DNA of 16,655 bases from a virus (taxonomy: Duplodnaviria; Heunggongvirae; Uroviricota; Caudoviricetes), in IMG/VR virus record IMGVR_UViG_2698536647_000004, positions 1 to 16,655 of that record; one strand, written 5' to 3'. The notes under the pieces are model-generated. The model worked only from the letters and a program-made list of their open reading frames with translations, did no database searches and was not told the origin of the DNA. Of the stretch, positions 234 through 16,655 are shown one piece after another. The position numbers and the translations under genes were made by a program. Numbering within the stretch: the first letter of the stretch is position 1; each line of letters begins with the position of its first letter.

Positions 234-296
234 GTGCAGCTCCATCAGCAAAAGGGGATGATAAGTTTATCACCACCGACTATTTGCAACAGTGCC
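1..296 (-). mobile_element. IS26 (IS6 family), left end only; element continues beyond the window start
   Basis: Minus strand of 283-296 reads GGCACTGTTGCAAA, the 14-bp IS26 terminal inverted repeat, followed by the characteristic leader and the tnpA start MNPFKGRHFQRDIILWAVRWYCKYGISYRELQEMLAERGVNVDHSTIYRWVQRYAPEMEKRLRWYWRNP, recalled from memory as IS26 Tnp26. Confidence 0.9.
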
Positions 297-1240
297 GTTT
301 GCCTTTCCTCATCATCGGTATTGGTCTTAGGAGCACGCAGATCGACTTTGATTTGCTCCAGCATCAGGGGCGGCACTTTCCCGCCATGCGCCTCGATGAA
401 TTCAGCTGCTTCCAGCACTGACCAGTTATTTTCACGCTTTCGTTCGTATGCCAGCTTAACAATGCCAGCTTGCCCCATAGACAAAGCGTGCTTTTCCGCC
501 TCCCGGCTTTCTTTTCGATAGTTATTCCGGATGCTGTAAATGGTGTTGATCAGACTGCTTATCTGCGCGGAACAGCTGTTTAGCATGCTCGCGATACGGT
601 ATTCAGGCGGAGTACCTTCATCATCGTCTTTTTGCTGATCGCGCATTTCCTGCACCAGGCGAATACACGTATCCCTGGCGTTCTCCAGCATAAGGAGATG
701 AGAAAGAGACTTTTCAAGAAGAGTGGTTTCCAGAACATCGGCCCCGGACCGACGCAACATAGCGCGCGCGGCCTTCCGCGCTTCAACGTTATCTATCAGG
801 TAATCGCCAGCTTCGAATTCAAAGCGTTCACCATCATCATCCAGGGTGTCGCGTTCCAGGCGATCACGTAAGGTACGGTGGGCGCGGGTGATCACGTCAT
901 GATCATCAGAACGATCATTTATGCGCTTATTTTGGCGCTTAGCGTTCTCGACTGCGGCTCTGACAACAGCATTAACTCTTTGTTTTTCAGCTATTTCAGC
1001 CACAATATGATCACCTGCACGTTGATCATTAGCGTGATCAATGATCATGCTTTTTAGTGGTTTCCTGACAGGCTTATTTGGCTTGCGGCTGTCCGCTGTC
1101 CTGGTGTCTTCTTTGAAGGCACGGAGATAACGACGTGCGGTATTAGGGTTAAGATTAAACTCGGCGGCATACTGTGCGATGGTGTAACCACCATCCCGCG
1201 CCAGGCGAGCAAAATTCTTCTTGTGATCGTCCCAGGTCAC
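245..1240 (-). CDS. pacA: P1 pacA-like terminase small subunit, 3' end interrupted by IS26; native codons 1240..297 (about 315 aa), last 16 codons of the ORF are read from the IS26 terminus
   Basis: GTG start at 1240 preceded by GGAAG (5-nt spacer) and an in-frame TAA. N-terminal HTH-like segment [24 protein letters not shown] pac-like TGATCA hexamer cluster lies inside the 5' third of the gene, as described for P1 pacA. The ORF tail [16 protein letters not shown] is encoded by the IS26 inverted repeat. Assignment rests on the pac site and context, not on sequence recall. Confidence 0.55.
862..1047. other. pac: pac-like packaging site: two clusters of TGATCA / TGATCG hexamers (each containing a GATC Dam site)
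   Basis: Hexamers on the plus strand: CGATCA 862-867, TGATCA 889-894, TGATCA 900-905, CGATCA 913-918, then TGATCA 1008-1013, 1023-1028, 1035-1040, 1042-1047. This is 4 + 4 hexamers separated by about 90 bp. P1 pac is described as 4 + 3 TGATCA/G hexamers flanking the cleavage region inside pacA. Confidence 0.6.
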
Positions 1241-1325
1241 TTATGCTTCCTTTCGTAAAAACTCTTTTTGACGCGAGGGTAACGAAAGTCACATGTCAAA
1301 AGGCCCGGAACGGGCAAGCAATCAA

Positions 1326-1778
1326 TCAGATACGTGCGGATGTGGCATTACCGTAATAACGGTGCTGACGGGCCACCTTATTGAAAAGTTGACGCGCCAT
1401 TACCCAAGGCTGGTGCTCCCGGCGTTCCTTTTCGTCCTGCGTCATATAGAGTTCGTTCTGGAGTTTTTCATCAAACCGGCGCGGAGCGCGGCTACGGCGA
1501 AAGAATTCAGGATTCAGAGAGTGGATCTGAAATCTACGTGGGCGTGTACTGTCATCAATCAAAACAGACGAATACTTAGACACAGCGATAGCCTTTAAGC
1601 GCAGATAAACATCGCGCTTATCGACATCCAGATGCGGGTATTCCTTTTCAAGAATTGCTGCGAGTTCTTTCGCTGATAGAAGAGATTTAGTGCGGATCAT
1701 GTAATCCGCAATCTCGTACGATGTTATTCGTGAGTGATTTATTTCCATGAAGTGGCGTCCCTGCCAGTTAAGTAACAT
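1326..1778 (-). CDS. Hypothetical 150-aa protein, positionally equivalent to P1 lpa (late promoter activator, gene 10)
   Basis: ORF with ATG at 1778 preceded by AGGTGA. It lies directly upstream of the pacA-like gene and directly downstream of a C1-operator-like motif plus a candidate promoter (TTGCTA, 16 bp, TATTAT on the minus strand, about 1824-1851). I do not recall the Lpa sequence, so the call is by position and size only. Confidence 0.4.
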   Translation of the reverse strand: MLLNWQGRHFMEINHSRITSYEIADYMIRTKSLLSAKELAAILEKEYPHLDVDKRDVYLRLKAIAVSKYSSVLIDDSTRPRRFQIHSLNPEFFRRSRAPRRFDEKLQNELYMTQDEKERREHQPWVMARQLFNKVARQHRYYGNATSARI

Positions 1779-1848
1779 CCTGTCACCTACTGATTAGCCC
1801 ATGTCAACTAATCAACGTGGAATATAATACCCTCGATTAAAGAAATAG

Positions 1849-1865
1849 CAACACATTAGAGCAAT
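1849..1865 (-). promoter_or_regulatory. C1-repressor-operator-like 17-mer ATTGCTCTAATGTGTTG (13/17 to the consensus ATTGCTCTAATAAATTT as I recall it)
   Basis: Read on the minus strand directly after the stop of the DUF968-like gene and upstream of the lpa-like ORF. P1 gene 10 is known to be C1-controlled. Confidence 0.5.
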
Positions 1866-1866
1866 T

Positions 1867-2898
1867 TTATCTAACGCTCGACGAATGACTTGTGATAACG
1901 CCGACTCCAAGCGCGTAATCAAAGAACAATCGTTGATGCATCGCCAGCCTGCCGTGTGTTTTCTCCCAATTATCGCGGTCACGCTCAATATCACGCTGGC
2001 ATGACTGGCACAGAGGAATAGCATAAATGTCATGCGCGCATAATCGACTATGACGAACTATATAAGGCGTAATGTGAGCGCCAGCTCCCGCCGCTCCACA
2101 CCCACAGCATGGACGGGAAGCAACAAAGTCCATGTACTCAGGTAATTTTAGCGATTGCAGTTTTGGTATTTTGAAATGCTCGGAGTCAACATCCACAGGG
2201 CATACTTTTGCACGCATCGGCGCAGCGCGTTCTTCCATCATCTGAACATATGCTGTAGCGCGATCGTCATACGGGCGAATATCCGCCTCTTTCAGAGGTC
2301 CGCTATCCTGCGTTGCGGCTTTCATCTTATTTATTGATATACGGCAAACTTCTTCCGGCATCAGGTGCATCATGTTGCGCATGAAAGCCCACCAGCACAG
2401 TTCCTGAATACTTAAATCATGGCTATCTGAAAGGCCCATTTCCTGACGGGCGACATCCAGTATCCAGTTAACGCGATTATTATGCAGCGTTTCTTTCAGC
2501 TCATTAAAACCACGCATCCGGTAATGGTTATCGTGATGCCAGCACAGCAACACCGCGCTATTGTCTCGTTCTGCGTGGACAATATGGTTGTCACACCAGC
2601 TACGATCTGCGGCCTGGCATTGCCCCTCTTTCCTGCGCAACCACGCCACCAGCGCGTCAATTCCACCAATACGGCGAAACAGTTCATCGCTGTTAAAAAA
2701 CGGCTGCAACGCCTCATTTGTTGCCATAGTTTGCTCGGAAACAACGAGGCCGTCGTCCATGTGCTCGATTAACTCACGCGGCACCGGCTCCATAATAAAT
2801 TTACGGCCAGCCTCCACCAGCTTTCTGACTTCCTGATCCACTTTGAATGTGGCGACGCCAAGCTCTTTTTGTACAAAGGGAGTAATTACGGCTTTCAC
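1867..2898 (-). CDS. DUF968-like prophage protein (343 aa) with a C-terminal Cys/His cluster; positionally like P1 pdcA
   Basis: GTG start at 2898 preceded by AAGGTG. The C-terminus carries CCGCG...AHITPY...[15 protein letters not shown], a putative zinc-binding or HNH-like motif. Resemblance to the DUF968 family (e.g. E. coli YdfU) is by recall. Confidence 0.55.
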
Positions 2899-2925
2899 AT
2901 CACACCTTTCATCACTGATTGGGCT

Positions 2926-3105
2926 TTATCTGCTGCCCGGCATTCTCTGTTTAAGCACAACCATTTCCTGACGGCATAACACAGCAATAGCGGTCCTGGC
3001 ACCAATTTGCTTACCAACCAGGTATTGCTTTACCTTGCGGCGACTCACGCCATCAAGAAGCATCTTTAACGCTTCACGGGACAATTTGTTGTATTTGCGT
3101 GCCAT
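2926..3105 (-). CDS. Small basic protein (59 aa) apparently translationally coupled to doc; positionally like P1 pdcB
   Basis: ATG at 3105 lies 4 nt after the doc stop with GGAG 7 nt upstream. Translation MARKYNKLSREALKMLLDGVSRRKVKQYLVGKQIGARTAIAVLCRQEMVVLKQRMPGSR. The longer ORF to 3126 would overlap doc. Confidence 0.45.
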   Translation of the reverse strand: MARKYNKLSREALKMLLDGVSRRKVKQYLVGKQIGARTAIAVLCRQEMVVLKQRMPGSR

Positions 3106-3109
3106 TAAT

Positions 3110-3490
3110 CTACTCCGCAGAACCATACAATCTACGTAACGTGTCGGCGACAGAAGATACAGATATCTCTCCGGTCGCAGCCCCTACGGTAAGGTCTGCC
3201 AGTTCAGGTGAATCAAATACCTGCACCCCGTTACGGCGTAGAAATAACAGCGCACTGTTTAGCGCGGTACGCTTATTGGCATCATTGAATATATGCCCTC
3301 TCGCTGTAGCCACCAGGTAGGTGGCGGAGACTTCGAAAAGGTCGGTGATCTCTTCGTAGGCAACTCTGGCCTGAACTCTCCCGATAATGGCCTCTGCCCT
3401 ACCCGGATCTGACATTCCCGGCAGGCCGCCGTAGCGGTTTATATTCGCATCATGAAGCGCAATAAGTTCTTCCGGTGATATATGCCTCAT
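3110..3490 (-). CDS. doc: Doc toxin (Fic/Doc family kinase) of the phd-doc addiction module
   Basis: 126 aa starting [16 protein letters not shown], with the Fic/Doc motif HIFNDANKR. Closely resembles P1 Doc from memory. Its start overlaps the phd stop (TAATG). Confidence 0.95.
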
Positions 3491-3711
3491 TATCGGTTAA
3501 CCAGTTCCTTGTTGGTGGAGTCCAGGGTGTCAAACAGGGATGCAAATTCAGCATCCAGCGCCGCTTTTTTGTAGGCTTCGAAAGTAGCCTTGCTGACAAT
3601 TACTGCTGGCTCACGGCCTCTGCGGGTGATTTCAACCTCTTCCCCGGCCTCAACATTGTTGAGCACTTCAGAAAGGTTGCCGCGCGCGGTACGGAAGTTA
3701 ATGGATTGCAT
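3490..3711 (-). CDS. phd: Phd antitoxin (prevent-host-death)
   Basis: 73 aa, [49 protein letters not shown]..., matching P1 Phd from memory. RBS GAGGT upstream of the ATG at 3711. Confidence 0.95.
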
Positions 3712-3760
3712 AAATACCTCGTGTACTCGTTATGTGTACACAATTATAAACTTCACAGGC
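3712..3760 (-). promoter_or_regulatory. phd-doc promoter with palindromic operator half-sites
   Basis: On the minus strand a perfect TATAAT (plus 3743-3748) is followed by the palindrome TGTGTACACA (3733-3742) and GAGTACAC (3721-3729). The P1 phd-doc operon is autoregulated through palindromic operator sites overlapping its promoter. Confidence 0.6.
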
Positions 3761-3887
3761 ATAAAGCACCAGCACTTTGCGGCTTAACAAACCTCTAGGC
3801 AGGTCATTCGTAGCCTAATGTCCGAACTGCTAAAGCATCCAAGTTGCTGTAGAATCACCGCCAATTACATAAGCCTGAAATAAGTGG

Positions 3888-5450
3888 ATGAAAATGACAA
3901 GTATTCAACAACGTGCAGAGCTTCATCGTCAAATCTGGCAAATTGCTAACGATGTCAGGGGTTCGGTCGATGGATGGGATTTTAAGCAATACGTTCTGGG
4001 CGCACTTTTCTACCGTTTTATCAGCGAAAATTTTTCCAGCTATATTGAAGCCGGTGATGACAGTATCTGTTATGCGAAACTGGATGACAGCGTAATTACT
4101 GATGACATTAAAGACGATGCCATCAAAACTAAAGGCTACTTCATCTACCCCAGTCAGCTTTTCTGCAACGTAGCGGCGAAAGCAAATACCAATGACAGAC
4201 TGAATGCAGATTTAAACAGCATCTTCGTTGCTATCGAAAGTTCTGCTTACGGTTATCCTTCAGAAGCTGACATCAAAGGTTTGTTTGCTGATTTCGATAC
4301 CACCAGTAACCGCCTGGGTAACACCGTTAAGGATAAAAATGCCCGCCTGGCTGCGGTTCTGAAAGGGGTTGAAGGGTTAAAACTTGGTGACTTCAACGAA
4401 CATCAGATTGACCTGTTCGGTGATGCCTATGAGTTCCTGATCTCTAACTATGCGGCAAATGCCGGTAAGTCAGGCGGCGAGTTCTTTACACCGCAGCACG
4501 TCTCTAAGCTGATTGCACAACTGGCTATGCACGGGCAGACCAACGTTAACAAAATCTACGACCCGGCAGCGGGTTCCGGCTCACTGTTGTTGCAGGCGAA
4601 AAAACAGTTTGATAACCACATCATCGAAGAAGGCTTTTTCGGTCAGGAAATCAACCATACGACCTATAACCTGGCGCGTATGAACATGTTTTTGCACAAT
4701 ATCAACTACGACAAGTTTGATATCAAGCTGGGTAATACACTGACTGAGCCGCACTTCAGAGATGAAAAACCGTTTGATGCCATCGTTTCTAACCCGCCGT
4801 ATTCGGTGAAATGGATTGGCAGCGATGACCCGACGCTGATTAACGATGAACGTTTTGCCCCGGCTGGCGTTCTGGCCCCCAAATCCAAAGCTGACTTTGC
4901 GTTTGTATTACATGCGCTGAACTATCTTTCGGCCAAAGGTCGCGCTGCGATTGTCTGCTTCCCGGGCATTTTTTACCGTGGCGGCGCGGAGCAGAAAATC
5001 CGTCAGTATCTGGTCGATAATAACTATGTCGAAACCGTAATTTCACTGGCTCCGAACCTGTTCTTTGGCACCACCATTGCCGTAAACATTCTGGTTCTGT
5101 CTAAACATAAAACGGATACCAACGTTCAGTTTATTGACGCCAGCGAACTGTTCAAAAAAGAGACTAACAACAATATCCTGACCGATGCCCATATCGAACA
5201 GATTATGCAGGTATTTGCCAGCAAGGAAGATGTTGCTCATCTGGCGAAATCTGTTGCGTTTGAGACTGTTGTCGCGAATGACTATAACCTGTCGGTGAGC
5301 AGCTATGTGGAAGCGAAAGATACTCGCGAAATTATCGATATCGCTGAGCTGAATGCTGAGCTGAAAACCACGGTCAGCAAAATCGACCAGTTGCGCAAAG
5401 ATATTGATGCGATTGTGGCTGAAATTGAAGGCTGCGAGGTGCAGAAATGA
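3888..5450 (+). CDS. hsdM: Type I restriction-modification N6-adenine DNA methyltransferase subunit HsdM (type IC, EcoR124-like)
   Basis: 520 aa with the AdoMet motif [10 protein letters not shown] and the catalytic NPPY motif (SNPPYS). It overlaps hsdS by 4 nt (ATGA). Confidence 0.97.
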
Positions 5451-6652
5451 GCGAGATGAGTTATCTGGAAAAATTGCTGGATGGGGTTGAGGTTGAGTGG
5501 AAGACACTTGGGCAAACTTGCAAAATTGAAACAGGAAAGCTTAATGCGAATGCGGCTGTTGATGATGGAGAGTATATGTTCTTCACGACAGCCAAAGAGA
5601 CAAGCAAAATTGATAAATTCCGCTGGGATACAGAGGCATTGCTGATTGCAGGCAATGCGAATGTTGGTGAGGTGAAGCATTACATCGGCAAGTTTGAGGC
5701 TTATCAGCGCACCTATGTTCTGACAAATTTCGACGAAAATGTAAGTGTTAGATTTTTGTATTTTGTGCTTAGCCATAGCCTGAAGAAATATCTCGAGGAA
5801 AGAACAAATAGCGCGGCAATGACATATATCGTGCTATCAACCTTAGAGAATTTCCCTATCCCCATCCCCTGCCCGGATAATCCGGAAAAATCCCTTGCCA
5901 TCCAGTCTGAAATCGTTCGGATTCTGGATAAATTTACTGCACTTACCGCTGAGCTTACCGCTGAGCTTAACATGCGTAAAAAACAGTACAACTACTATCG
6001 CGACCAGTTGTTGAGTTTTAAAGATGGTGAGGTTGAGTGGAAGACTTTGGGGGAAATTGGAGATTTTACATATGGATATGCAGCCAAAGCCATGGATTCA
6101 GGAGATGCCCGTTTCGTGAGAATTACTGACATAAATAAAGACGGGAAGCTATCGAAAGAAAACCCAATGTACGTTGAATTAAATGAGGAAAATGAGAAAT
6201 ATACCTTAGACAAAAATGATTTACTCATGGCAAGAACTGGGGCAACCTTTGGTAAAACAATGATTTTTGAAGAAGATTATCCAGCAGTATACGCTGGTTT
6301 TTTAATAAAGTTGAACCTAAATAAAACGATTATTAATGCCAAATATTACTGGCACTTTGCACAAAGTGATTTTTTTTGGGAACAGGCTAATAAATTAGTA
6401 TCTGGTGGTGGGCAACCACAGTTTAATGCTAATGCACTGAAACAAGTCAGAGTACCTATTCCATACCCATCTCACCCTCAAAAATCTTTAGACGAACAGG
6501 GGCGTATTGTGGATATTCTGGATAAGTTTGATGCAATCGCAGCTTCCATCACCGAAGGTCTTCCGCGTGAAATCGAGTTGCGCCAGAAACAATACGAATA
6601 CTACCGTGATTTACTGTTCAGTTTCCCGAAACCTGAAACTGCCAGTAATTAA
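5447..6652 (+). CDS. hsdS: Type I restriction-modification specificity subunit HsdS with two target-recognition domains
   Basis: 401 aa. Conserved central repeat region ([26 protein letters not shown]) and the matching C-terminal conserved region ([18 protein letters not shown]). The N-terminal motif VEVEWKTLG is repeated at the start of TRD2 (GEVEWKTLG). Confidence 0.95.
5944..5967 (+). repeat. Perfect 2 x 12-bp tandem repeat (TACCGCTGAGCT) encoding TAEL-TAEL in the HsdS central spacer region
   Basis: Direct read: 5944-5955 equals 5956-5967, preceded by a degenerate copy encoding TAL. In type IC systems the copy number of this repeat sets the spacer length of the recognition site (two copies in EcoR124I, three in EcoR124II, as I recall). 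Confidence 0.85.
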
Positions 6653-6679
6653 TTGATCATTGCTACCGATCGGACCACC

Positions 6680-6745
6680 TTAACACCCGGTCAGTATATA
6701 GACTATTTTTTACGCGCCGGAAGTCACCATTACCCCCCTTCCGGC
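6680..6745 (+). promoter_or_regulatory. Candidate hsdR promoter (TTAACA 6680-6685, TATATA 6695-6700 region) and a leader stem-loop (GCCGGAAG 6716-6723 / CTTCCGGC 6738-6745)
   Basis: Type IC hsdR is known to have its own promoter separate from hsdMS. The hexamers are weak; the 8-bp inverted repeat with a 14-nt loop is read directly from the sequence. Confidence 0.35.
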
Positions 6746-6773
6746 CCTTGCCAGACGGCACAAAGGATGCGCT

Positions 6774-9700
6774 ATGACTCATCAGACACACACCATTGCT
6801 GAATCCAATAACTTTATCGTTCTTGATAAGTACATCAAAGCTGAGCCAACAGGCGACAGCTACCAGAGCGAATCGGACCTGGAACGTGAACTGATTCAGG
6901 ACCTGCAAAATCAGGGTTATGAATTTATTTCCGTAAAATCACAGTCGGCAATGCTGTCCAATGTTCGGGAACAGCTTCAGAGCCTCAATGGTGTGATGTT
7001 TAATGACAGCGAGTGGCGGCGCTTCACGGAGCAGTATCTGGACAACCCCAGCGATGGTATTCTGGATAAAACCCGTAAAATCCATATCGACTATATCTGC
7101 GACTTTATTTTTGATGACGGGCGACTTGAGAACATCTATTTGATAGATAAAAAGAATCTCATGCGCAATAAGGTGCAGATTATCCAGCAGTTTGAACAGA
7201 CGGGTTCTCATGCTAACCGTTATGACGTCACGATCCTGGTTAATGGTTTACCGCTGGTGCAAATCGAACTAAAAAAACGCGGGGTGGCGATTCGTGAGGC
7301 TTTCAACCAGATACATCGTTACAGTAAAGAGAGTTTTAACAGCGAAAATTCCCTGTTTAAGTATCTGCAACTGTTTGTCATTTCTAACGGCACCGATACC
7401 CGTTATTTTGCCAACACGACAAAGCGCGATAAAAACAGTTTTGACTTCACCATGAATTGGGCGAAATCAGACAACACGCTGATTAAAGACCTCAAAGACT
7501 TTACCGCTACCTTTTTCCAGAAACATACTCTGCTGAATGTTCTGGTGAACTACAGCGTTTTTGACAGTAGTCAGACGCTACTGGTGATGCGACCGTACCA
7601 GATTGCCGCCACCGAGCGCATTCTGTGGAAAATTAAGAGTTCCTTTACAGCGAAGAACTGGTCAAAACCGGAAAGCGGTGGGTATATCTGGCACACTACC
7701 GGTTCTGGTAAAACCCTCACCAGCTTTAAAGCCGCGCGTCTGGCAACAGAGCTGGACTTTATTGATAAAGTCTTCTTTGTGGTCGACAGGAAAGACCTCG
7801 ATTACCAGACCATGAAGGAATATCAGCGTTTTTCGCCAGACAGCGTCAACGGCTCGGAAAATACCGCAGGCCTTAAACGAAATCTGGATAAGGACGATAA
7901 CAAAATTATCGTCACTACTATTCAGAAACTCAATAACCTGATGAAAGCAGAAAGCGACCTGCCTGTATATAATCAGCAAGTGGTGTTTATATTTGATGAA
8001 TGCCACCGCAGCCAGTTTGGAGAAGCGCAGAAAAACCTGAAGAAGAAATTCAAACGCTATTATCAGTTTGGTTTTACCGGCACACCTATTTTCCCGGAAA
8101 ACGCCTTAGGCTCAGAAACGACCGCCAGCGTATTTGGTCGTGAATTGCATTCGTATGTAATTACCGATGCGATTCGTGATGAAAAAGTGCTCAAATTCAA
8201 GGTGGACTACAACGATGTGCGGCCACAGTTTAAGTCTTTAGAGACAGAAACTGACGAGAAAAAACTAAGTGCGGCTGAAAATCAGCAGGCGTTTCTTCAT
8301 CCCATGCGTATACAGGAAATTACGCAATATATTCTGAATAACTTCCGCCAGAAGACGCACCGTACTTTCCCTGGCGCAAAAGGTTTTAATGCTATGTTGG
8401 CAGTGAGCAGCGTGGATGCTGCAAAAGCCTATTACGCGGCGTTTAAACGGTTACAAGAGGAAGCCGCTAATAAATCTGCAACTTATAAACCGCTGCGTGT
8501 TGCGACAATCTTCTCCTTTGCCGCTAATGAAGAACAAAATGCCATTGGTGAAATTTCCGATGAAACTTTTGATACCAGCGCAATGGACAGCAGTGCTAAA
8601 GAGTTTCTTGACGCTGCAATTCGTGAGTATAACAGCTATTTTAAAACTAACTTCAGCACCGACGGTAACGGTTTTCAGAACTACTATCGCGATTTAGCCC
8701 AACGGGTTAAAAATCAGGATATCGATCTGTTAATTGTCGTTGGGATGTTTTTAACCGGCTTCGACGCTCCAACATTGAACACGCTATTCGTCGATAAAAA
8801 CTTGCGTTTTCACGGCCTGATGCAGGCATTTTCCCGCACCAACCGCATTTATAACGCCACTAAAACCTTCGGTAACATTGTCACTTTTCGGGATCTGGAA
8901 CGCTCAACCATTGATGCCATAACGCTGTTTGGTGATAAAAATACCAAAAATGTGGTGTTAGAAAAGAGTTATGCAGAGTATATGGAAGGTTTTACTGATG
9001 CTGCCACCGGTGAAGCCAAACGCGGCTTTATGGCAGTAGTTTCAGAACTGGAACAACGGTTCCCTGACCCTGCCAGTATTGAAAGTGAAAAAGAGAAGAA
9101 AGACTTCGTTAAACTGTTTGGCGAATACCTGCGTGCCGAGAACATCCTGCAAAACTATGATGAATTTGCCACGCTAAAAGCCCTGCAACAAATCGATCTT
9201 AGCGATCCTGTTGCGGTAGAAAAATTCAAAGCAGAACATTATGTGGATGATGAAAAGTTCGCTGAATTGCAAACAATTCGTCTCCCTGCTGAACGCAAGA
9301 TTCAGGATTATCGTTCTGCCTATAACGATATTCGCGACTGGCAGCGCCGTGAGAAAGAAGCTGAGAAAAAAGAGAAATCAACCACTGACTGGGATGACGT
9401 GGTTTTTGAGGTCGATTTGCTGAAGTCTCAGGAAATAAACCTGGATTATATCCTTGGACTGATTTTCGAACACAACAGACAAAATAAAGGCAAGGGCGAA
9501 ATGATCGAAGAGGTCAAACGCTTAATTCGTTCAAGCCTGGGGAACCGGGCGAAAGAGGGCCTGATGGTCGATTTTATTCAGCAAACGAACCTGGATGATT
9601 TACCAGACAAAGCCAGTATCATTGAGGCATTCTTTACGTTTGCTCAACGCGAACAGCAACGTGAAGCAGAAGCATTGATAAAAGAAGAAAATCTCAATGA

Positions 9701-9890
9701 AGATGCAGCAAAACGCTATATTCGCACGTCTTTAAAACGCGAATACGCCACCGAAAATGGCACAGAATTAAACGAAACATTACCAAAACTTAGTCCGTTG
9801 AATCCGCAATATAAAACGAAAAAACAGGCAGTTTTCCAGAAAATCGTCTCGTTTATTGAGAAGTTTAAAGGCGTAGGCGGAAAAATATAG
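6774..9890 (+). CDS. hsdR: Type I restriction enzyme R subunit HsdR (type IC; same 1038-aa length I recall for EcoR124I HsdR)
   Basis: PD-(D/E)xK-type nuclease motif in the N-terminal domain ([19 protein letters not shown]), helicase Walker A TGSGKT and a DECH box ([10 protein letters not shown]). RBS AAGGATG before the ATG at 6774. Confidence 0.97.
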
Positions 9891-9903
9891 CCCAATTCGT
9901 GTT

Positions 9904-9937
9904 TTTCTTGCGGGTTCTTAATTAAACCCGCAAGAGC
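9904..9937. other. Stable stem-loop (stem of at least 9 bp, CTTGCGGGT / ACCCGCAAG) just after the hsdR stop; function unknown
   Basis: Direct read. The T-run is on the 5' side of the stem on the plus strand, so it is not a canonical intrinsic terminator in either orientation. Confidence 0.5.
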
Positions 9938-9969
9938 TCGTGGGGTTCCAAATGGCTAATATACTCCCC

Positions 9970-10056
9970 TTACCCATGCGCGACGATGCCGCCAAAAGTG
10001 ATAGAGAACAGCCAGAAATAGATCGCGGCCATAATGATTTTGAATGCCGTGTTCAT
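9970..10056 (-). CDS. Candidate small hydrophobic protein (28 aa, MNTAFKIIMAAIYFWLFSITFGGIVAHG)
   Basis: ATG at 10056 with AGGAG 8 nt upstream. The whole peptide looks like a single transmembrane helix. Not in the supplied ORF track (too short). It lies between a C1-operator-like site and the end of hsdR. Confidence 0.3.
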   Translation of the reverse strand: MNTAFKIIMAAIYFWLFSITFGGIVAHG

Positions 10057-10084
10057 ATTTTCAGCTCCTGTGATTGATTGGATA

Positions 10085-10115
10085 CATGCCGCGCCTTGCG
10101 GCATGTTTTTATTTT
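10085..10115 (+). terminator. Rho-independent terminator, plus orientation
   Basis: GC-rich 8-bp stem CATGCCGC (10085-10092) / GCGGCATG (10098-10105) with loop GCCTT, followed by TTTTTATTTT. It is the first canonical terminator downstream of hsdR. Confidence 0.7.
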
Positions 10116-10138
10116 CACTTTCTCTGTTTTAAAAATCA

Positions 10139-10155
10139 AGATTTATTAGAGCAAT
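10139..10155 (-). promoter_or_regulatory. C1-repressor-operator-like 17-mer ATTGCTCTAATAAATCT (16/17 to the recalled consensus)
   Basis: Read on the minus strand immediately after the stop of the HAD-like gene. The weak promoter-like hexamers TTGATT and GAAAAT follow it. Confidence 0.6.
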
Positions 10156-10661
10156 TATTGTTGATGAAGAAGCGCATTTTCGTACTCTCTGACCATTAAC
10201 GTAAGCACGCCGTGATGCCTGAAAACACGCGCTACTTCAATCTTATCTTCCAGCGCGAACGCAATTTTACTTAGACCAATTTTCTTAAGGAGATCAATCT
10301 TTGCTGGACCATCATTTCTGTCATCGGTGGCAGGACGCATAGATAGCAAAGGCTCAGCCCCATTTGTTACGTGCTTACGCAACCAGGCTCGTGTTTTATC
10401 CCTTGCGATCTCACAGCGCCCGGTTACAAACCAGACCGTGTAAACGTTAAATAACTGGCGCACCATATCAATAACTGGAGTGATGGGAGTATCGGTGTCA
10501 CAGGCGAGATTAAACTCGTTCCAGTCCTTTGTTACTGCACCTTTACCTGGTGGCGGAAGCAAATGCAGTCTGTCTTCAGTTGCCTCTGATATTGTTCCAT
10601 CAATATCGACTATGACGATATACGGACGTTCCTGGTGTGCGTGTTTATTGAAAATACTCAA
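10155..10661 (-). CDS. HAD-superfamily phosphatase-like protein (168 aa)
   Basis: TTG start at 10661 preceded by a strong AGGAGG (4-5 nt spacer) and an in-frame upstream stop. HAD motif I DIDGT (VIVDIDGTIS). Possibly equivalent to a P1 phosphatase gene, but I cannot confirm that from memory. Confidence 0.6.
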   Translation of the reverse strand: MSIFNKHAHQERPYIVIVDIDGTISEATEDRLHLLPPPGKGAVTKDWNEFNLACDTDTPITPVIDMVRQLFNVYTVWFVTGRCEIARDKTRAWLRKHVTNGAEPLLSMRPATDDRNDGPAKIDLLKKIGLSKIAFALEDKIEVARVFRHHGVLTLMVREYENALLHQQ

Positions 10662-10732
10662 ATGCCCTCCTCATTGGACGAAAAAATGCTGGTGGGCGCA
10701 CTCCACCAACATTAAAAGTGACACTGTAACTA

Positions 10733-11995
10733 TCAGCGAACGTAAATAGTGCCGCCGTTCTCTTTTTCCCATGCATCGCTACGTGCATAGCAAACATCGA
10801 GAAGTCTTCTTGCCGCTGTTTCCTCTAAACCCAATTCGACAACCAACTGTTCATGACGGCGGGTAACCACATCAAACAACGTATGCAGCCCTTTAGTTGC
10901 CAGTTCATCAATGAATTCCGGTTCGAACGGTAGCTCTGCATCTGCCAACATAACCTCTTGCGCCCACTCGACACGGCGGACCAGTTCCGGGCGGCGGCTT
11001 TCCATCTCTTTACAGATCAATTCATGGAAGAACTCTACCCAACCTTCCGGCTGGAACTCGCGGAAAATGGCCAACGGCTGGAAGTTTGGCATCAACCATT
11101 CGTTGATACGGATATCAATGGCATAGCCCATGTCGCAGCAGAACTGATAAGCAAAGTCCAGCTTAGAAACGATATAAGGACGCTCGTTATTGAACTCTTT
11201 AGGCGATGAGATCCCATAAGCCAGGAGGCGCGGGAAGAATGAGATTTGCCCTAACGTCGGATGAAGTTTGCTTGCAGGGAAACGGCGCTCAGTAATGCCA
11301 TACATTTCCTTCTTGAGCGTCGCAAATTTGGCATTCTCATTAACCAGCGCGGTAACCTCTGCTTTTTTATTAGCAAATGCCACGCGCGCTTCGCTTGCAT
11401 CTTTAATAGTTTTTTTGAGCTGTTGGTTAAGGTCGGCGACCTGTTTACGCAGTTCCTGCCGCTCGCTTTTAGCTTTGTTATAGCGTTTCTCAAGGTTAAA
11501 AGGATCAAGTTTCATGATCTCTTTATATTGAGATTTTAGCGTTGAAATCTGTGAGTTCCGCAGTTCAACCATCGCGGTCATTTCATTGAGTTTTGTTTCC
11601 AGCTCAATGCTTATACGTTCGGCATTATCAGCACGCTGGTTGGCGTCATGCGTCGCATCGTCGATCGCATCCTGTTGCTGGCGTTTCAAATGTTCAATTT
11701 GCAGCTGAAGCTCTTCAATTTCTTTACCCTTCAGACCGAGATCCAACTGCATATTTTCAGCTGCATCTACCAGGGAGTTATGGCTATCAGCTTCTGCGTT
11801 ATAAACATCAATAAGCTGTGCGTGAAGCATCTCCGCTGACTGAACCGCATTATCAAAAAAACGTGCTGTGAGGTCATCACAACTAACGCGGCGTTGCGCG
11901 GCCCGGATGTTCTGGATAATGGCCGGGATACCGGCATTCAGGACATCAGGGATAGATACATTTTCGATTGATTGGTTTTGTGCTGAAGTGCTCAT
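10733..11995 (-). CDS. Hypothetical 420-aa protein: long N-terminal coiled-coil region plus a C-terminal domain of unknown function
   Basis: ATG at 11995. Residues about 90-230 are heptad-rich (EIEELQLQIEHLKRQQQ...ELRKQVADLNQQLKK). I do not recognise any catalytic motif in the C-terminal 190 aa. Confidence 0.7.
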   Translation of the reverse strand: MSTSAQNQSIENVSIPDVLNAGIPAIIQNIRAAQRRVSCDDLTARFFDNAVQSAEMLHAQLIDVYNAEADSHNSLVDAAENMQLDLGLKGKEIEELQLQIEHLKRQQQDAIDDATHDANQRADNAERISIELETKLNEMTAMVELRNSQISTLKSQYKEIMKLDPFNLEKRYNKAKSERQELRKQVADLNQQLKKTIKDASEARVAFANKKAEVTALVNENAKFATLKKEMYGITERRFPASKLHPTLGQISFFPRLLAYGISSPKEFNNERPYIVSKLDFAYQFCCDMGYAIDIRINEWLMPNFQPLAIFREFQPEGWVEFFHELICKEMESRRPELVRRVEWAQEVMLADAELPFEPEFIDELATKGLHTLFDVVTRRHEQLVVELGLEETAARRLLDVCYARSDAWEKENGGTIYVR

Positions 11996-11996
11996 T

Positions 11997-12215
11997 TCAA
12001 AGTTCCGTATTAGCTTGTGCTTCGGTCATTTTTCCTAAGTATGAAGGAGGAAGGACTACGCAATTTGTATCCAGTCCCTCACCTATGGCAGCCTGTAAAA
12101 TTCTGGCTAAGGTGAGTCTCTTGTTGCGATACCTGGTGATGACATGCCTGATACCGCCGGTCGGCGTAACAAAGGCGATCAGCCAGTAGTGATATTTCCG
12201 TCGGAATGGCCACAT
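11997..12215 (-). CDS. Hypothetical small protein (72 aa if started at the ATG at 12215), stop 1 nt before the ATG of the 420-aa gene
   Basis: The ORF track gives 11997..12272, but that 5' extension overlaps the minus-strand terminator. The ATG at 12215 has AGGGTG upstream. The tight spacing to the next gene suggests coupling. Confidence 0.4.
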   Translation of the reverse strand: MWPFRRKYHYWLIAFVTPTGGIRHVITRYRNKRLTLARILQAAIGEGLDTNCVVLPPSYLGKMTEAQANTEL

Positions 12216-12229
12216 AGTGCACCCTGTAG

Positions 12230-12246
12230 ATTGCTCTAATAAAAAA
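12230..12246 (+). promoter_or_regulatory. C1-repressor-operator-like 17-mer ATTGCTCTAATAAAAAA (14/17), plus orientation
   Basis: Direct read. It forms an inverted pair with the site at 12279-12295. Confidence 0.5.
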
Positions 12247-12267
12247 CGTGATGAGTGTACATCACGT
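12237..12267 (-). terminator. Rho-independent terminator, minus orientation, ending the glycosyltransferase-like operon
   Basis: Stem ACGTGATG (12246-12253) / CATCACGT (12260-12267) with a 6-nt loop. On the minus strand the stem is followed by TTTTTTATT. Confidence 0.7.
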
Positions 12268-12278
12268 TTCAAAAATAT

Positions 12279-12295
12279 GGAATTATTAGAGCAAT
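12279..12295 (-). promoter_or_regulatory. C1-repressor-operator-like 17-mer ATTGCTCTAATAATTCC (14/17), minus orientation
   Basis: Read on the minus strand directly after the stop of the glycosyltransferase-like gene. The following 30 nt closely resemble the sequence after the site at 10139-10155. Confidence 0.55.
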
Positions 12296-12296
12296 A

Positions 12297-12998
12297 TTAT
12301 TCTGATTCTCGCTCAAAAAACGAGCTGATAAGGGGAAGCCAATCCTCTGACACTTCGCGAGGTCGCGGTTTGCCGTGGAAAAAGATTATTCGGCAGTCTT
12401 TTGGTAATGCCCCATTCCCCCTGGAGTAACGCGCGCTCGCATATTTCGAACCAGGTTCCACAACATCGGCCTTGTAACTTACAAACCATCCTGGATACAG
12501 ATCCTGAAATGCTGGTGTATCATCGCCCATAACCTTTCGTAAGAACCCCTGGTCACCCCAGCACTCAGTAGTGACACAACGAGAAATCCAACCTTCCGGA
12601 TCTTGCCAGAATGAACTCCAGATATGCGCTTTAACACTATTTGGTATCCACAGGGCACCGCTGCCACGATATTGTGGATGGTAAAAATCCCTAAGCATGG
12701 TGAAGCTGGTTGGTGGATGCTCTAGGATTGGGCGTATATCACCGGCAATAACCGTGTCCAAATCCAGATAGAACAGATCATCGGTTATATCCGGTCGGAA
12801 CAACTCGATTTTCGCCCACCAGCCACGGCACTTTTGCCACTGGTTGATCAATGGGACAACTTTGACGCCAGGTACATGTAAACGCTTCAGGTCTGTCAGG
12901 CAAATAATTTCATAGCCTTTTGGCAGTTGATTAACCAGCCACTGCACATCGGAAGCGTTATAGTCACCACCAGAGCGAAAAACTAAAGCAATCTTCAT
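12297..12998 (-). CDS. Hypothetical protein (233 aa), possibly a glycosyltransferase (DxD-like LDLD motif)
   Basis: ATG at 12998 overlaps the stop of the upstream phosphatase gene (ATGA). The N-terminus [13 protein letters not shown] and [12 protein letters not shown] suggest a nucleotide-sugar transferase fold, but this is weak. Confidence 0.45.
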
Positions 12999-13687
12999 GC
13001 TGCACCATCACCTTTCACTTTCATCAATGTCAGGTTTCCGCAAAATACGGCACCAGTGTCGATATACTGCTGATTCCAGAATGTCTTCGGGCTTTTCACC
13101 GGAGTGTGACCAAAGATAAAACGATCTGCGCCCGAAATTTCGCCACCAATATCATCCATCGAATCACTGATACGCTCGCGCGCCCAGACAACGTTGAAAA
13201 GCGGCACCTCCTTACCGAATTGGTATTCATTATCCGGATAGTCGGCATGGGCTATAACGATAGTTTCTTGCCCGGTGTTCAACTCAATGATATAGGGCAG
13301 ACGCTTTACCAGCTCCACCAGCGCCCAGGCTAATATTTCCTGATCAGTGTCCAGCATGAAGAACCATTGTCCGCCATTCATTAGCCAGTTATTCACGTTG
13401 CCATCTGGACTTAACGCATCAATCATCAGCCGCTCATGGTTCCCCATCACTGCCCTGAACCAGGGCATCTGCAATAGTTCCAGACATTCGACATTTTCAG
13501 TACCGCGATCGATAAGGTCGCCGACCGATATCAGTAAATCCTGCGCCGGGTCAAAATCCACACGATGGAGTTCGGACATCAGTCTGGTGTAGCAACCATG
13601 CAGATCACCAACAACCCAGACATTCCTGTATTTGGTACCGTCGATACGGTGATAAATTGTGGGTGCCATCATGTATTCTTCAGCCAT
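12995..13687 (-). CDS. Ser/Thr protein phosphatase of the lambda PPase (calcineurin-like metallophosphoesterase) family; likely P1 ppp-like
   Basis: Motifs GDLHGC, GDLIDRG, GNHE and a C-terminal GHTP. Strongly resembles the lambda phosphatase (nin region ORF221) from memory. The true start may be the ATG at 13669, which overlaps the upstream stop by 1 nt. Confidence 0.85.
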
Positions 13688-14295
13688 TCTTTAAGAGTCA
13701 TCTGTGGAATGCCTCCCATTTTCCCGCATGAAACAACGTCAATCTGTTCACGCGCAGACTGGAATAACAAAGGCAGGTGACTTAGATTTTTTGGCGTGCC
13801 GCCGGAGTGAACGCGTGGTTCTTGTGTAGCGTCAACGCCCACCAGGGCGACATGTTTGAATCCGATATGGAAAGCCAGGTTCAGAGCGCCATATGCACTA
13901 TTGCCGCTGGCAATTTCATTCTCATCTTCGCAAAGTCCGAAATGTGCGGACCAACGCCACGCCCACCACTCGGGAGAATTCGTATTTTTTGGCTCCATGC
14001 CACGTTCAGCCACACGACGGAAGCACAGAACGCCGTCTCTGACTTCACGTTCTTTAACATCGGGTAGTGCCATGCAATAACAAACACCACGGCGACGGCG
14101 GCCACGACCAACGCGCCGCATATTGTCTGGCGATGGATCAAGTGTGAAAAAATAAGAAGCGCGGTTCAGCCAGTCGATGGCCCCATTGACCGCTATAATC
14201 GGCACTCCGCGCGGCGCAACAAAGTTTGCGGCGCTTGGGCCACTGCCGACGATAATAACGCGATCACTGCCTCTAAATTTATTCTTGGGAAACAT
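13669..14295 (-). CDS. MptE-like / DUF115-like protein, paralog A (208 aa)
   Basis: Motifs VIIVGSGPS ... IIAVNGAID ... [12 protein letters not shown] ... VALVGVDAT resemble the Rossmann-like core of PF01973 (MptE/Maf family), by recall. It is a paralog of the next gene. Confidence 0.45.
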
Positions 14296-14855
14296 TGAAT
14301 TGCACAGCTCCTACTTGCATTCAAAATATGTAAATCTGCGTGTTTTTTGCGGGTATCCAGGAACTGCTGTTGCCATTTTGAAATAGACACCTGCGTTGGA
14401 TTCCGTAGGGCTTGAGGGTGTGCTCCATGCCAATGAAGGCCGTTTTGCAGAGAACAGTCATAGCCGACTAATACAACTACTTCAGCCCCTGATTCAGCCG
14501 CCAGACTGATAGTCTGCGCGCCGCTATTAACCCCTTCAGCCGGTCCACAATATCGCCTGTACTCCAACGAAAATGATTTCGCCGCCGCCAGGTTGGCTGT
14601 CACTTTGCGGAATCTCCCTCCCGGTATGGTGGATCCGTATTGCTTCCACCATGACAAATCACCGGCGTATAAGGCATAAATGTCATCGAACATCTGCCAG
14701 GAATTGTTAACCGCGATGATTGAACAGCCAGTTTTTTCTATAGCAGCACAGTCCTCACGAGTGAGTGACGGACCGCTACCGACACAAAAAACAGTCCTAG
14801 TCGCCCTGGGTGGTATGTTCATTCTCAGCTGCAAATTCAGCCTCCAGGCGAGCAT
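14193..14855 (-). CDS. MptE-like / DUF115-like protein, paralog B (about 208-220 aa)
   Basis: Motifs VFCVGSGPS ... IIAVNNSWQ ... SGAQTISLAA ... VVLVGYDCS. Start uncertain: ATG 14855, TTG 14834 (GGAGG 6 nt upstream) or ATG 14822. The 3' end overlaps paralog A by 103 nt in another frame. Confidence 0.45.
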   Translation of the reverse strand: MLAWRLNLQLRMNIPPRATRTVFCVGSGPSLTREDCAAIEKTGCSIIAVNNSWQMFDDIYALYAGDLSWWKQYGSTIPGGRFRKVTANLAAAKSFSLEYRRYCGPAEGVNSGAQTISLAAESGAEVVVLVGYDCSLQNGLHWHGAHPQALRNPTQVSISKWQQQFLDTRKKHADLHILNASRSCAIQCFPRINLEAVIALLSSAVAQAPQTLLRRAECRL

Positions 14856-14994
14856 TCATTTCAGCGATTACCGGGTCCACTACAGCATCTGCTTCCTGTT
14901 CATTACGCGGCATGATCGATGCCAGCGATTCATAATTAGCCTTGGATGACACAATTATTCTCCCGATGTTAATGTGCGCTATATCAAAGAGCAC
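14797..14994 (-). CDS. Questionable small ORF (65 aa, or 38 aa from an internal ATG)
   Basis: ORF track only. There is no convincing RBS at either candidate start. Confidence 0.25.
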   Translation of the reverse strand: MLFDIAHINIGRIIVSSKANYESLASIMPRNEQEADAVVDPVIAEMNARLEAEFAAENEHTTQGD

Positions 14995-15018
14995 ATATGC
15001 ACTAATTAATTTATTATT

Positions 15019-15381
15019 TTAAGCAGCATACAACCACTTGTCGCCGTTCAATACATGCTCAATAGCCTCACCCTTTTTAAGGCTTATGTATTCCAGGATG
15101 GCGGTTATCGCTTGTTCTGCACCATACGCAAGAACGACGTAGTAACCTTCCTCTCTAAGCCTGCGCATCCAGGCGATCTGCTCTTTCGTCGGGGCTTTAC
15201 CATTTGGTTCTTTAAGCTCAATTCGCATGCCGTGATAAATACCGCATGCTTTATCGAGACTCATGTCCGGATAACCTTTTTTCTGCCCTTCAGCCTTCAT
15301 TTTCCCGGCGGTTGCTTTTGAACGTTTCCCTCTGAAGTGGTTTACTGAATTTGGCCACCTGAACAGAGGTGATATGCTCAC
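15019..15381 (-). pseudogene. VRR-NUC domain nuclease gene, 5' end replaced by the IS911 terminus (native part 15019..15332)
   Basis: Core KGYPDMSL ... IELKEPNGKAPTKEQIAWMRRLREEGYYVVLAYG fits the VRR-NUC pattern (G.PD ... E.K ... Q). The first 16 codons of the ORF are encoded by IS911 inverted-repeat sequence, and the usual N-terminal portion of the domain is missing. Confidence 0.65.
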
Positions 15382-15667
15382 CTCAGAACAACACAGGTGC
15401 CATAATGAAAAAAAGAAATTTCAGCGCAGAGTTTAAACGCGAATCCGCTCAACTGGTCGTTGACCAGAATTACACCGTGGCAGATGCAGCCAGCGCTATG
15501 GATGTCGGCCTTTCCACAATGACGCGATGGGTGAAACAATTACGTGATGAGCGGCAGGGAAAAACACCAAAAGCCTCCCCCATTACCCCGGAACAAATTG
15601 AAATCCGTGAGCTCAGGAAAAAGCTACAACGTATTGAAATGGAAAATGAAATATTAAAAAAGGCTAC
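15333..15667 (+). mobile_element. IS911 (IS3 family) left-end fragment: left inverted repeat plus a truncated orfA (ATG 15405), interrupted by IS30
   Basis: Begins TGAAGTGG...; orf[89 protein letters not shown] matches IS911 OrfA (InsN) from memory. The frameshift heptamer A AAA AAG is at about 15655-15661, and IS30 sequence starts at 15668. Confidence 0.85.
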
Positions 15668-16655
15668 TGTAGATTCAATCTGTCAATGCAACACCCCTTT
15701 CAATTATCTCTTTCGGTGTTTTGAACTTCAGTGTCTTTCTCGGTCTGTTGTTTAGCTGAGCAGCAACCAGATCTAGTTCATGTTGAGTATATTGGGCAAG
15801 ACATGTCTTTTTAGGAAAGTACTGCCGAATTAGCCCATTTGTATTCTCATTTGTTCCCCGCTGCCAAGGACTCTGAGGATCGCAGAAGTAAACTTTAACG
15901 CCGGTGCTGACAGTAAATTCTAGATGTCTGGCCAGTTCCATTCCTCTGTCCCATGTCAGTGATTTTCTGAGTTCTGACGGTAAACTCAGGAATTTGTCGG
16001 TAAGAGCCTGATTTACTGAGACAGAATCTTTGCCCCTGAGTCTAAGGATGATCGTATAACGTGATTTTCGGTCTACAAGTGTGTCTATATGAGAGTTTTT
16101 TGTACCTGAGACTAAATCGCCCTCCCAATGCCCCAGAGAGCGTCTGTTATCGATATTTCGGGAACGTTCGTGAATTGGTGTTCCGTTCACTATGTTAATC
16201 GTACCTCTTTCGCCTTTGCGGGTATGACGCCTGCCATGGCGAAGGCTATGCGACCGTCGCAGATGCTGTATATTCAGGTGGTGTAGCGCTTCACGGCTAC
16301 GAAAGTACAGCGTTTTATAAATTGTCTCAGGTGATATTCGCAGCGTTTTTTGACGTGGTTTTGTTCGCCTTAACCATCCTGATATTTGCTCTGGAGACCA
16401 TTTCATCTCCAGCTTTTCCAGAACAAGCTTTCGCAATGGTAAATTTTGATCCAGTAAGCACGGTTTTGGCCTTTTCGCCATTCTGTTGGCTCGGTTATTA
16501 GCATCAACAGCTTTGTAATAGCGTCTGCCCCGATTACGCTGAACTTCACGTGAGATCGTCGAAGGACTGCGATTCAGCGCAGTAGCTATCGCACGAATGC
16601 TCATTTTGGCTGACAAACCAGCTCGTATCTCCTCGCGCTCAGACAGTGTCAGGTG
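15668..16655 (-). mobile_element. IS30, partial (right end and most of the transposase; continues beyond the window end)
   Basis: The terminus TGTAGATTCAATCTGTCAATGCAACA begins at 15668. The transposase frame is open from 15675 to the window edge (...[30 protein letters not shown]...) and matches IS30 InsI from memory. Confidence 0.9.
15675..16655 (-). CDS. IS30 transposase, C-terminal approx 326 codons (5' end outside window)
   Basis: Stop TGA at 15677-15675 inside the inverted repeat. A DDE-type catalytic region is present. The ORF track begins at an internal TTG, but the frame stays open to 16655. Confidence 0.9.

Follow-up and report, generated by a model that had tools for sequence, protein, structure and literature searches.

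A truncated ISEc52-type element interrupted by IS30 at the edge of a P1-derived segment

The window, a 16,655-nucleotide stretch of DNA from a virus of the Caudoviricetes (IMG/VR record IMGVR_UViG_2698536647_000004), carries toward its right end a fragment of the P1 gene pmgM, followed by the left end of an IS3-family insertion sequence and then by part of IS30. The pmgM fragment (positions 15019-15332, minus strand), which derives from a VRR-NUC/PDDEXK nuclease gene, is 96.5-98.4% identical to pmgM of phages P1 and P7. In P1 the gene has a putative morphogenetic function, measures 579 nt and bears the RefSeq product name VRR-NUC domain protein. Here its 3′ 314 nt (the stop codon and 103 codons) are kept and its 5′ 265 nt are absent, so that ∼89 codons at the N-terminal end are lost. 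Of the Pfam VRR_NUC profile, the peptide that is left matches only the second half (positions 55-115 of 116), with 22.9 bits, just below the cutoff of 23.8, and the domain is incomplete. In plasmid relatives, PGAP (NCBI's annotation pipeline) annotates the same stretch as a pseudogene lacking the N-terminus. A comparison of 14900-16655 with phage records gave matches of 95-98% to P1, P7 and further P1-like phages over 14900-15332, and homology to P1/P7 stopped at 15332 (position 433 of the query). The initial annotation had an IS911 left end replacing the 5′ end of the VRR-NUC gene from 15333 onward, and the end of P1 homology shows these coordinates to be exact.

The adjoining P1 features were spared by the insertion sequence. 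The C1 operator Oppp and the PpmgN promoter region (14996-15051, minus strand, from the P1 annotation) are identical to P1 at 54 of 56 bases and sit just inside and downstream of the 3′ end of pmgM. In P1, the stretch that corresponds to 14900-15332 comprises pmgN, Oppp, PpmgN and the 3′ part of pmgM. Compared with P1 and P7, the 3′ 314 nt of pmgM, the operator and the promoter are conserved, whereas the 5′ 265 nt of the gene and everything upstream of it (pmgL, genes 26, 25 onward) are missing. An Rfam scan of both strands of 14800-16655 (E≤1) detected no structured RNA.

Flush with the end of P1 homology, an element of the IS911 group begins at 15333 with TGAAGTGGTTTACTGAATTTGGCCACC... and occupies 15333-15667 (plus strand, 335 bp), a segment that includes the left inverted repeat, the leader and most of orfA. 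The core of the left terminal inverted repeat (15333-15359, plus strand), which reads TGAAGTGGT...TGGCCACC, was delineated by comparison with the right end of intact ISEc52 copies; it opens with 5′-TG and is the same as the left end of intact 1250-bp ISEc52 copies. Two such intact copies were 1250 bp in length and flanked by 3-bp target duplications. Across 15333-15667, 334 of 335 positions are identical to intact ISEc52 (99.7%), 331 of 335 to the K-12 copy IS911A (98.8%) and 302 of 335 to K-12 IS911B. Following the names that PGAP gives, copies called "IS3-like element ISEc52" are 99.7-100% identical to this segment, and copies called IS911 are ∼90% identical. The rule usually applied in ISfinder for assignment to the same element is about 95% nucleotide identity. 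On nucleotide identity, then, this is ISEc52, which belongs to the IS911 group but is not IS911 proper, and "IS911" is acceptable in the loose K-12 sense. The earlier identification as IS911 stands as to the group and the K-12 "IS911A" type; it does not stand for IS911 proper, or by PGAP nomenclature. Identities of 98-100% over hundreds of bases to characterised elements leave no room for chance resemblance.

Beside the left end lies the triplet CTC (15330-15332). As intact pmgM reads ...TTCCCTC/CGTTAGG at this point, CTC is, from the sequence, the expected left copy of a 3-bp target duplication. The left junction is the sole surviving junction of the insertion into pmgM.

The open reading frame of the truncated orfA (orfA′, 15405-15755, plus strand) was identified by translation from an ATG at 15405 and contains a Pfam HTH_Tnp_1 domain (E=6e-14). 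Its product would consist of 88 native OrfA residues, which include the helix-turn-helix, and 28 foreign residues specified by the right end of IS30; native OrfA has 100 amino acids. In the orfA frame, an A AAA AAG heptamer is present at 15656-15662 (plus strand), which we take to be the programmed −1 frameshift site of the IS911 group. Neither orfB, with its rve/DDE core, nor the right inverted repeat of the IS3-family element is found in the window. The ISEc52 copy is a fragment and not a functional member of its family. The biology of IS911 suggests that, with IS30 lying between the heptamer and orfB, this copy would be unable to make the OrfAB transposase.

IS30 enters at 15668, five bases after the heptamer, in agreement with the initial annotation, which had an IS30 terminus cutting orfA at 15667/15668 just past A AAA AAG. 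Starting from its right end, the first 988 bp of IS30 occupy 15668-16655 (minus strand), and 986 of 988 positions are identical to K-12 IS30A (99.8%). The right inverted repeat (15668-15693) begins TGTAGATTCAATCTGTCAATGCAACA, and the 26-bp terminal inverted repeat of IS30, TGTAGATTCAAT..., is present. The transposase gene (15675-16655, minus strand) is antiparallel to orfA and is cut by the end of the window, which leaves the C-terminal 326 of 383 codons with Pfam HTH_38 (E=2e-18) and rve (E=7e-13) domains. At 15666-15667 lies AC, the left copy of a 2-bp target duplication: intact ISEc52 reads GGCTACCGCG, and plasmid relatives read GGCTAC-IS30-ACCGCG, with AC duplicated around the element. Plasmids that are identical or nearly identical to the window over 297-16655 contain IS30 at its full length of 1221 bp with AC on either side. 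From its sequence, the copy in these relatives looks intact and may still be active. IS30 is known to generate 2-bp target duplications and to prefer hot spots, and the interruption of a K-12 IS911 by IS30A has been drawn and described in the IS30 literature (PMC9333248).

The P1-derived segment is also bounded on its other side by an insertion sequence, as had been noted. An end of IS26 (1-296), 100% identical to annotated IS26 copies in plasmid pCE1537-E, terminates at 296 with the terminal repeat ...TTTGCAACAGTGCC and truncates a P1-like pacA. In pECTOK-001_2 and pCE1537-E, pacA runs further before IS26 is reached, so that these plasmids do not contain an IS26/pacA junction at 296/297. An exact 40-mer spanning this junction had no match in genome contigs, and the whole window was not found in one piece in any record of PLSDB or of the RefSeq complete E. 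coli genomes.

The reference for P1 coverage was CP122701, a P1-like plasmid of this lineage that is intact and 96 kb in length. It is 98.4% identical to window positions 290-15332 in one piece, and its pmgM is intact. The 138-kb IncY plasmid pCE1537-E covers 28.3 of the 96.0 kb of CP122701 (29%), keeping repA/parAB, cre, c1 and the lpa-to-pmgN block and lacking the 5′ part of pmgM, pmgL, and the tail, baseplate, head and lysis regions. The complete P1-like (Punavirus) gene set is thus absent from pCE1537-E, and in the window itself pacA is cut by IS26. These observations indicate that the P1-derived stretch, with truncated pmgM and pacA, is a decayed remnant and not a working prophage. The suggestion that it had become part of a larger mosaic holds for its nearest relatives, and no relative examined contains an intact P1-like genome that continues past simple insertions.

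Because IS30 runs off the end of the window, what lies past 16655 is described from these relatives. Over 297-16655, pECTOK-001_2 (NZ_AP018397.1), a 202-kb IncF/IncHI1B plasmid, has 0 mismatches to the window and pCE1537-E (NZ_MT162143.1) has 2; CP081699, also a plasmid, shows no differences across 14900-16655, the part used as query, and has the same IS30 and intron structure past the window end. In all three plasmids IS30 is complete, and ISEc52 then resumes with ACCGCGCTC... and continues for 429 bp to ...GTGACCTATA. The search for the rest of the IS911-type element beyond IS30, which the initial annotation had advised, thus shows in pECTOK-001_2 and pCE1537-E that the element continues there. 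RefSeq/PGAP annotation of the plasmid relatives lists a VRR-NUC pseudogene, a partial transposase, IS30, an IS3 fragment and ltrA across this region.

Directly after ...GTGACCTATA, within orfB, a group II intron begins with GTGTG, and ltrA is annotated in it in pECTOK-001_2, pCE1537-E and CP081699. Its domain V/VI region matches the Rfam Intron_gpII model with 64.9 bits, and the match ends exactly at the predicted 3′ end (24688 in one of the three plasmid records). In the relatives, the 5′ GUGYG, domain V/VI, a reverse transcriptase/maturase open reading frame and the conserved insertion site in an IS3-family orfB were all observed. Published work describes E.c.I4 as a group II intron that targets a specific position in the transposase genes of IS629, IS911 and other IS3-like elements, with one fragment in MG1655 (PMC3522654). 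Matched on the insertion site and host range described there, the intron of the relatives is probably E.c.I4.

The sequence on the other side of the intron is not that of ISEc52. Its 3′ exon comes from another IS3-family element, of which it represents the integrase-core end. The 3′ exon in CP081699 differs from that in pCE1537-E and pECTOK-001_2; both show ∼50% identity to the ISEc52 tail and also to one another. CP081699 diverges from the other two plasmids exactly at the 3′ end of the intron. The latter two split from one another exactly at the right end of the IS to which their 3′ exon belongs, with unrelated DNA thereafter. In an E. fergusonii plasmid that carries this junction, IS903B, ISKpn26 and nar genes lie on the right side of the nest, and the phage record phi456, which is further decayed, contains the same pmgM/IS junction and IS30. 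The pmgN-pmgM′-ISEc52′-IS30 arrangement is present in at least 35 complete PLSDB plasmids. In a lineage of decayed P1-like plasmids, the nest is thus a left anchor that is conserved, next to an accessory region that varies.

In none of the relatives examined was the 5′ part of pmgM present on the far side of the IS3-family element. A synthetic query composed of the last 300 bp of ISEc52, CTC and 300 bp of the 5′ part of pmgM found no contiguous counterpart in either PLSDB or the phage collection. The target-site duplications called for by the initial annotation are therefore accounted for in part: AC flanks IS30 on both sides in the relatives, whereas for the 3-bp duplication only the left CTC is seen and a right junction was not found. 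The single hit in two pieces, to pMTY9975, was rejected as the right-hand junction, as it reflects an independent IS911-family insertion ∼270 bp away, near the 3′ end of pmgM. On a plasmid of strain 1332KP, the same pmgM breakpoint is joined to the opposite end of the IS.

An IS911-type element interrupted by IS30 and an intron is already known: nests of this kind are annotated in K-12 (CP4-6 and KpLE2) and in many plasmids, and the structure is an ordinary one. In the cryptic prophage CP4-6 of K-12 MG1655 the order is IS911A (335 bp), IS30A (1221 bp), IS911A-1 (429 bp), a group II intron remnant (eyeA, ykfC) and IS5A, with ykfC representing a reverse-transcriptase fragment. The CP4-6 locus aligns with the plasmid nest at 98-99.8% and shares with the window and its relatives the element type, the AC site with its 2-bp duplication, the 429-bp continuation and the intron position. 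It differs in that IS30A is flipped, IS5 cuts the intron short and the left flank is perR instead of pmgM. At KpLE2, adjoining the fec operon, the order is IS911B, IS30D, an IS600 fragment and IS911B-1. Here IS30D has the position and orientation seen in the window; IS911B, in contrast, is only 90% identical, lacks one A of the heptamer (334 bp) and is followed past IS30D by the IS600 fragment. The chromosome of E. coli 94-3024 (NZ_CP009106.2) carries a complete ISEc52-IS30-intron composite beside fecE, which is 100% identical to the window over 15333-15990 and has IS30 in the same orientation. Between its left repeat and the 3′ end of the intron, a span of 4259 bp, its identity to the plasmid nest is 99.5%. 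Unlike the plasmid nest, it has ISEc52's own 3′ exon, the right inverted repeat and chromosomal flanks.

IS30 is found at this site in both orientations. Its right end faces orfA, as in the window, in 1139 of 5426 complete E. coli genomes, and the flipped arrangement seen in CP4-6 of K-12 is present in 1010 of the same 5426, with the same AC, the same duplication and contiguous ISEc52 on either side. Homologous inversion between IS30 copies was considered as a source of the two orientations and rejected, as in either case ISEc52 is contiguous across the two flanks and AC is duplicated in the same way. The simplest reading of these sequences is that at least two independent IS30 insertions occurred at one dinucleotide, which would agree with the known hot-spot preference of IS30 (PMC9333248). 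The target site in ISEc52 appears weakly palindromic by eye, and the idea of a hot spot rests on recurrence, not on a consensus match. With nearly even confidence, and as a tentative proposal, the AC five bases past the IS911-group heptamer could be a hot spot that IS30 naturally prefers. IS30 would in that case be a "killer" of these elements, recurrent and site-specific, that uncouples orfA from orfB, and the resulting nests, as long tracts of nearly identical DNA, would provide a portable homology through which P1-like phage-plasmids are driven to become mosaic plasmids that are no longer phages.

Taken together, these data make it very probable that 15333-16655 is the left part of a dead mobile-element composite that marks the edge of a P1-derived remnant. 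The history we propose would include transposition of ISEc52 into pmgM of a P1-like phage-plasmid, a step suggested by a junction that falls exactly at the tip of the left repeat. IS30 would have inserted at the preferred AC site in ISEc52, altering the C-terminus of OrfA′ and cutting the heptamer off from orfB. As the relatives suggest, the intron would have retrohomed into orfB, 429 bp past IS30. Lastly, accessory DNA would have taken the place of the element's right half and, with it, of the 5′ part of pmgM, pmgL and the P1 late genes, most likely by homologous recombination between copies of the intron or of an IS; it is the hybrid exons that point to recombination at the intron. A simple insertion of ISEc52 into pmgM leaves the arrangement in the 1332KP plasmid unexplained.

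Alternatively, a pre-assembled composite of ∼4.7 kb, already containing IS30 and the intron within ISEc52, could have entered pmgM whole, either with transposase supplied by another copy of ISEc52 or IS911 or by gene conversion into a plain ISEc52. We consider this a serious possibility, albeit a less probable one. A complete chromosomal composite with both repeats exists (CP009106), with 99.5% identity over 4259 bp and with IS30 oriented alike, and the occurrence of the junction in the window orientation in 1139 of 5426 E. coli genomes implies that donors are common. The components are, however, 98-100% identical between copies in any case, so that identity cannot separate import from sequential insertions, and repeated independent insertions at the same positions are expected of IS30 and the intron, both of which are site-specific. 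IS30 at the same dinucleotide in both orientations, and the existence of ISEc52 copies that have the intron and lack IS30, also speak against import as a unit. The IS911 transposase acts preferentially in cis, which we count against it as well.

It is unlikely that a P1 fragment was captured by an existing mosaic plasmid through IS26- and IS3-family-mediated cointegration, with the IS end in place first. IS26 does bound the other side of the segment, many IS26 copies are present in the relatives, and pECTOK-001_2 lacks an IncY replicon. Inspection of the surrounding replicons, which had been advised and which identified an IncY plasmid of 138 kb (pCE1537-E) and an IncF/IncHI1B plasmid of 202 kb (pECTOK-001_2), nevertheless favors decay in place, as pCE1537-E has repA, parA, parB, cre and c1 in P1 order around the segment. 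The breakpoint is, moreover, common to plasmids with very different accessory DNA and to a P1-like phage record. That the junctions are assembly artefacts is highly improbable: IS copies of the IS30 and IS911 type are a classic source of misjoined, chimeric contigs and the window ends inside such a repeat, but the junctions are identical in at least 35 complete plasmids that were sequenced independently, as well as in the phage record, and the annotation of E. coli K-12 MG1655 has this IS30 junction.

Beyond correct annotation, the significance of the nest is small. The shared pmgM/ISEc52 breakpoint can conveniently serve to mark a lineage, a family of mosaic plasmids derived from IncY. The locus also illustrates a known theme, in which insertion sequences and homing introns stack and then serve as recombination points at which phage genes are traded for accessory DNA.

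Insertions of IS30 in both orientations occupy the identical AC dinucleotide of IS911-group elements, as seen in the window (15666-15668), in the CP4-6 region of E. coli K-12 MG1655 (L010, 4541/4542 and 5762/5763) and in L011 (7459/7460). Around each IS30 copy compared at these loci, whichever way it lies, the AC is duplicated and the flanks are contiguous. Among 5426 E. coli genomes, 1139 have IS30 oriented as in the window and 1010 have it the other way round. Because the same AC is used in both orientations, with AC duplication and contiguous flanks, these data suggest that the dinucleotide, five bases past the frameshift heptamer, is a natural hot spot for IS30.

In relatives of the window, a group II intron lies in orfB of ISEc52, the IS911-group element split by IS30, and its 3′ exon there is a foreign IS3-family element that differs between plasmids (L002, 22419-25203; L001, 22419-25170; L012, 32000-35100); one of these foreign elements carries the PGAP name ISCfr6. 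The plasmids part from one another precisely at one of two points, the 3′ boundary of the intron or the right terminus of the IS that supplies the exon. Since the 3′ exons come from different IS3-family elements, the arrangement implies that intron copies residing in different IS elements would have recombined with each other. A chromosomal ISEc52 (L016, NZ_AP023226.1, 1601-3535) is interrupted by the group II intron at this orfB position but contains no IS30; IS30 and intron insertions can therefore happen separately. In K-12 MG1655, the small RNA gene eyeA, ∼390 nt into the intron remnant that follows IS911A-1 (L010, 6192-7993), and the ORF ykfC both lie within that remnant.

The breakpoint at which ISEc52 truncates the P1 gene pmgM (…CCCTC|) recurs identically in a 115-kb plasmid (L012, NZ_JBTLGY010000003.1) at 27054/27055, where pmgM abuts an inverted ISEc52 at its right end; beyond that end lie an IS110-family element and scrambled pieces of the IS nest. 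A simple homologous inversion as the source of this junction fails to explain how the same target base came to be joined to the opposite IS end. On another P1-like plasmid (L019, NZ_CP135665.1, ∼4000-4300), an independent IS911-family right end adjoins pmgM, which is almost full-length there, at its 3′ end; the pmgM region has therefore been struck more than once by the IS911 group.

At the other boundary of the P1-derived segment (296/297), IS26 joins the terminase subunit gene pacA, whose 3′ end has been removed. As pacA runs on longer before IS26 in otherwise identical plasmids, sequence comparison indicates that the window stems from a derivative that has undergone an additional IS26-associated deletion; a derivative with this pacA deletion was not found in PLSDB, RefSeq complete E. 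coli genomes or genome_contigs. Flanked by phd/doc and the pap-pmgS block is a type I restriction-modification operon, complete with hsdM, hsdS and hsdR (3888-9890), which the intact 96-kb P1-like plasmids of this lineage also have.

The pmgM|ISEc52 junction of the window is also present in phage phi456 (L004, OR339795.1, 6396-7682), whose record was submitted as the complete genome of a P1-like phage. In addition, pmgM carries an IS1 insertion there, orfA is fused to the middle of IS30 through an internal deletion, and another IS1 lies beyond; the 5′ part of pmgM and pmgL are both missing from the record. If phi456 is really plaque-forming, pmgM and pmgL are dispensable.
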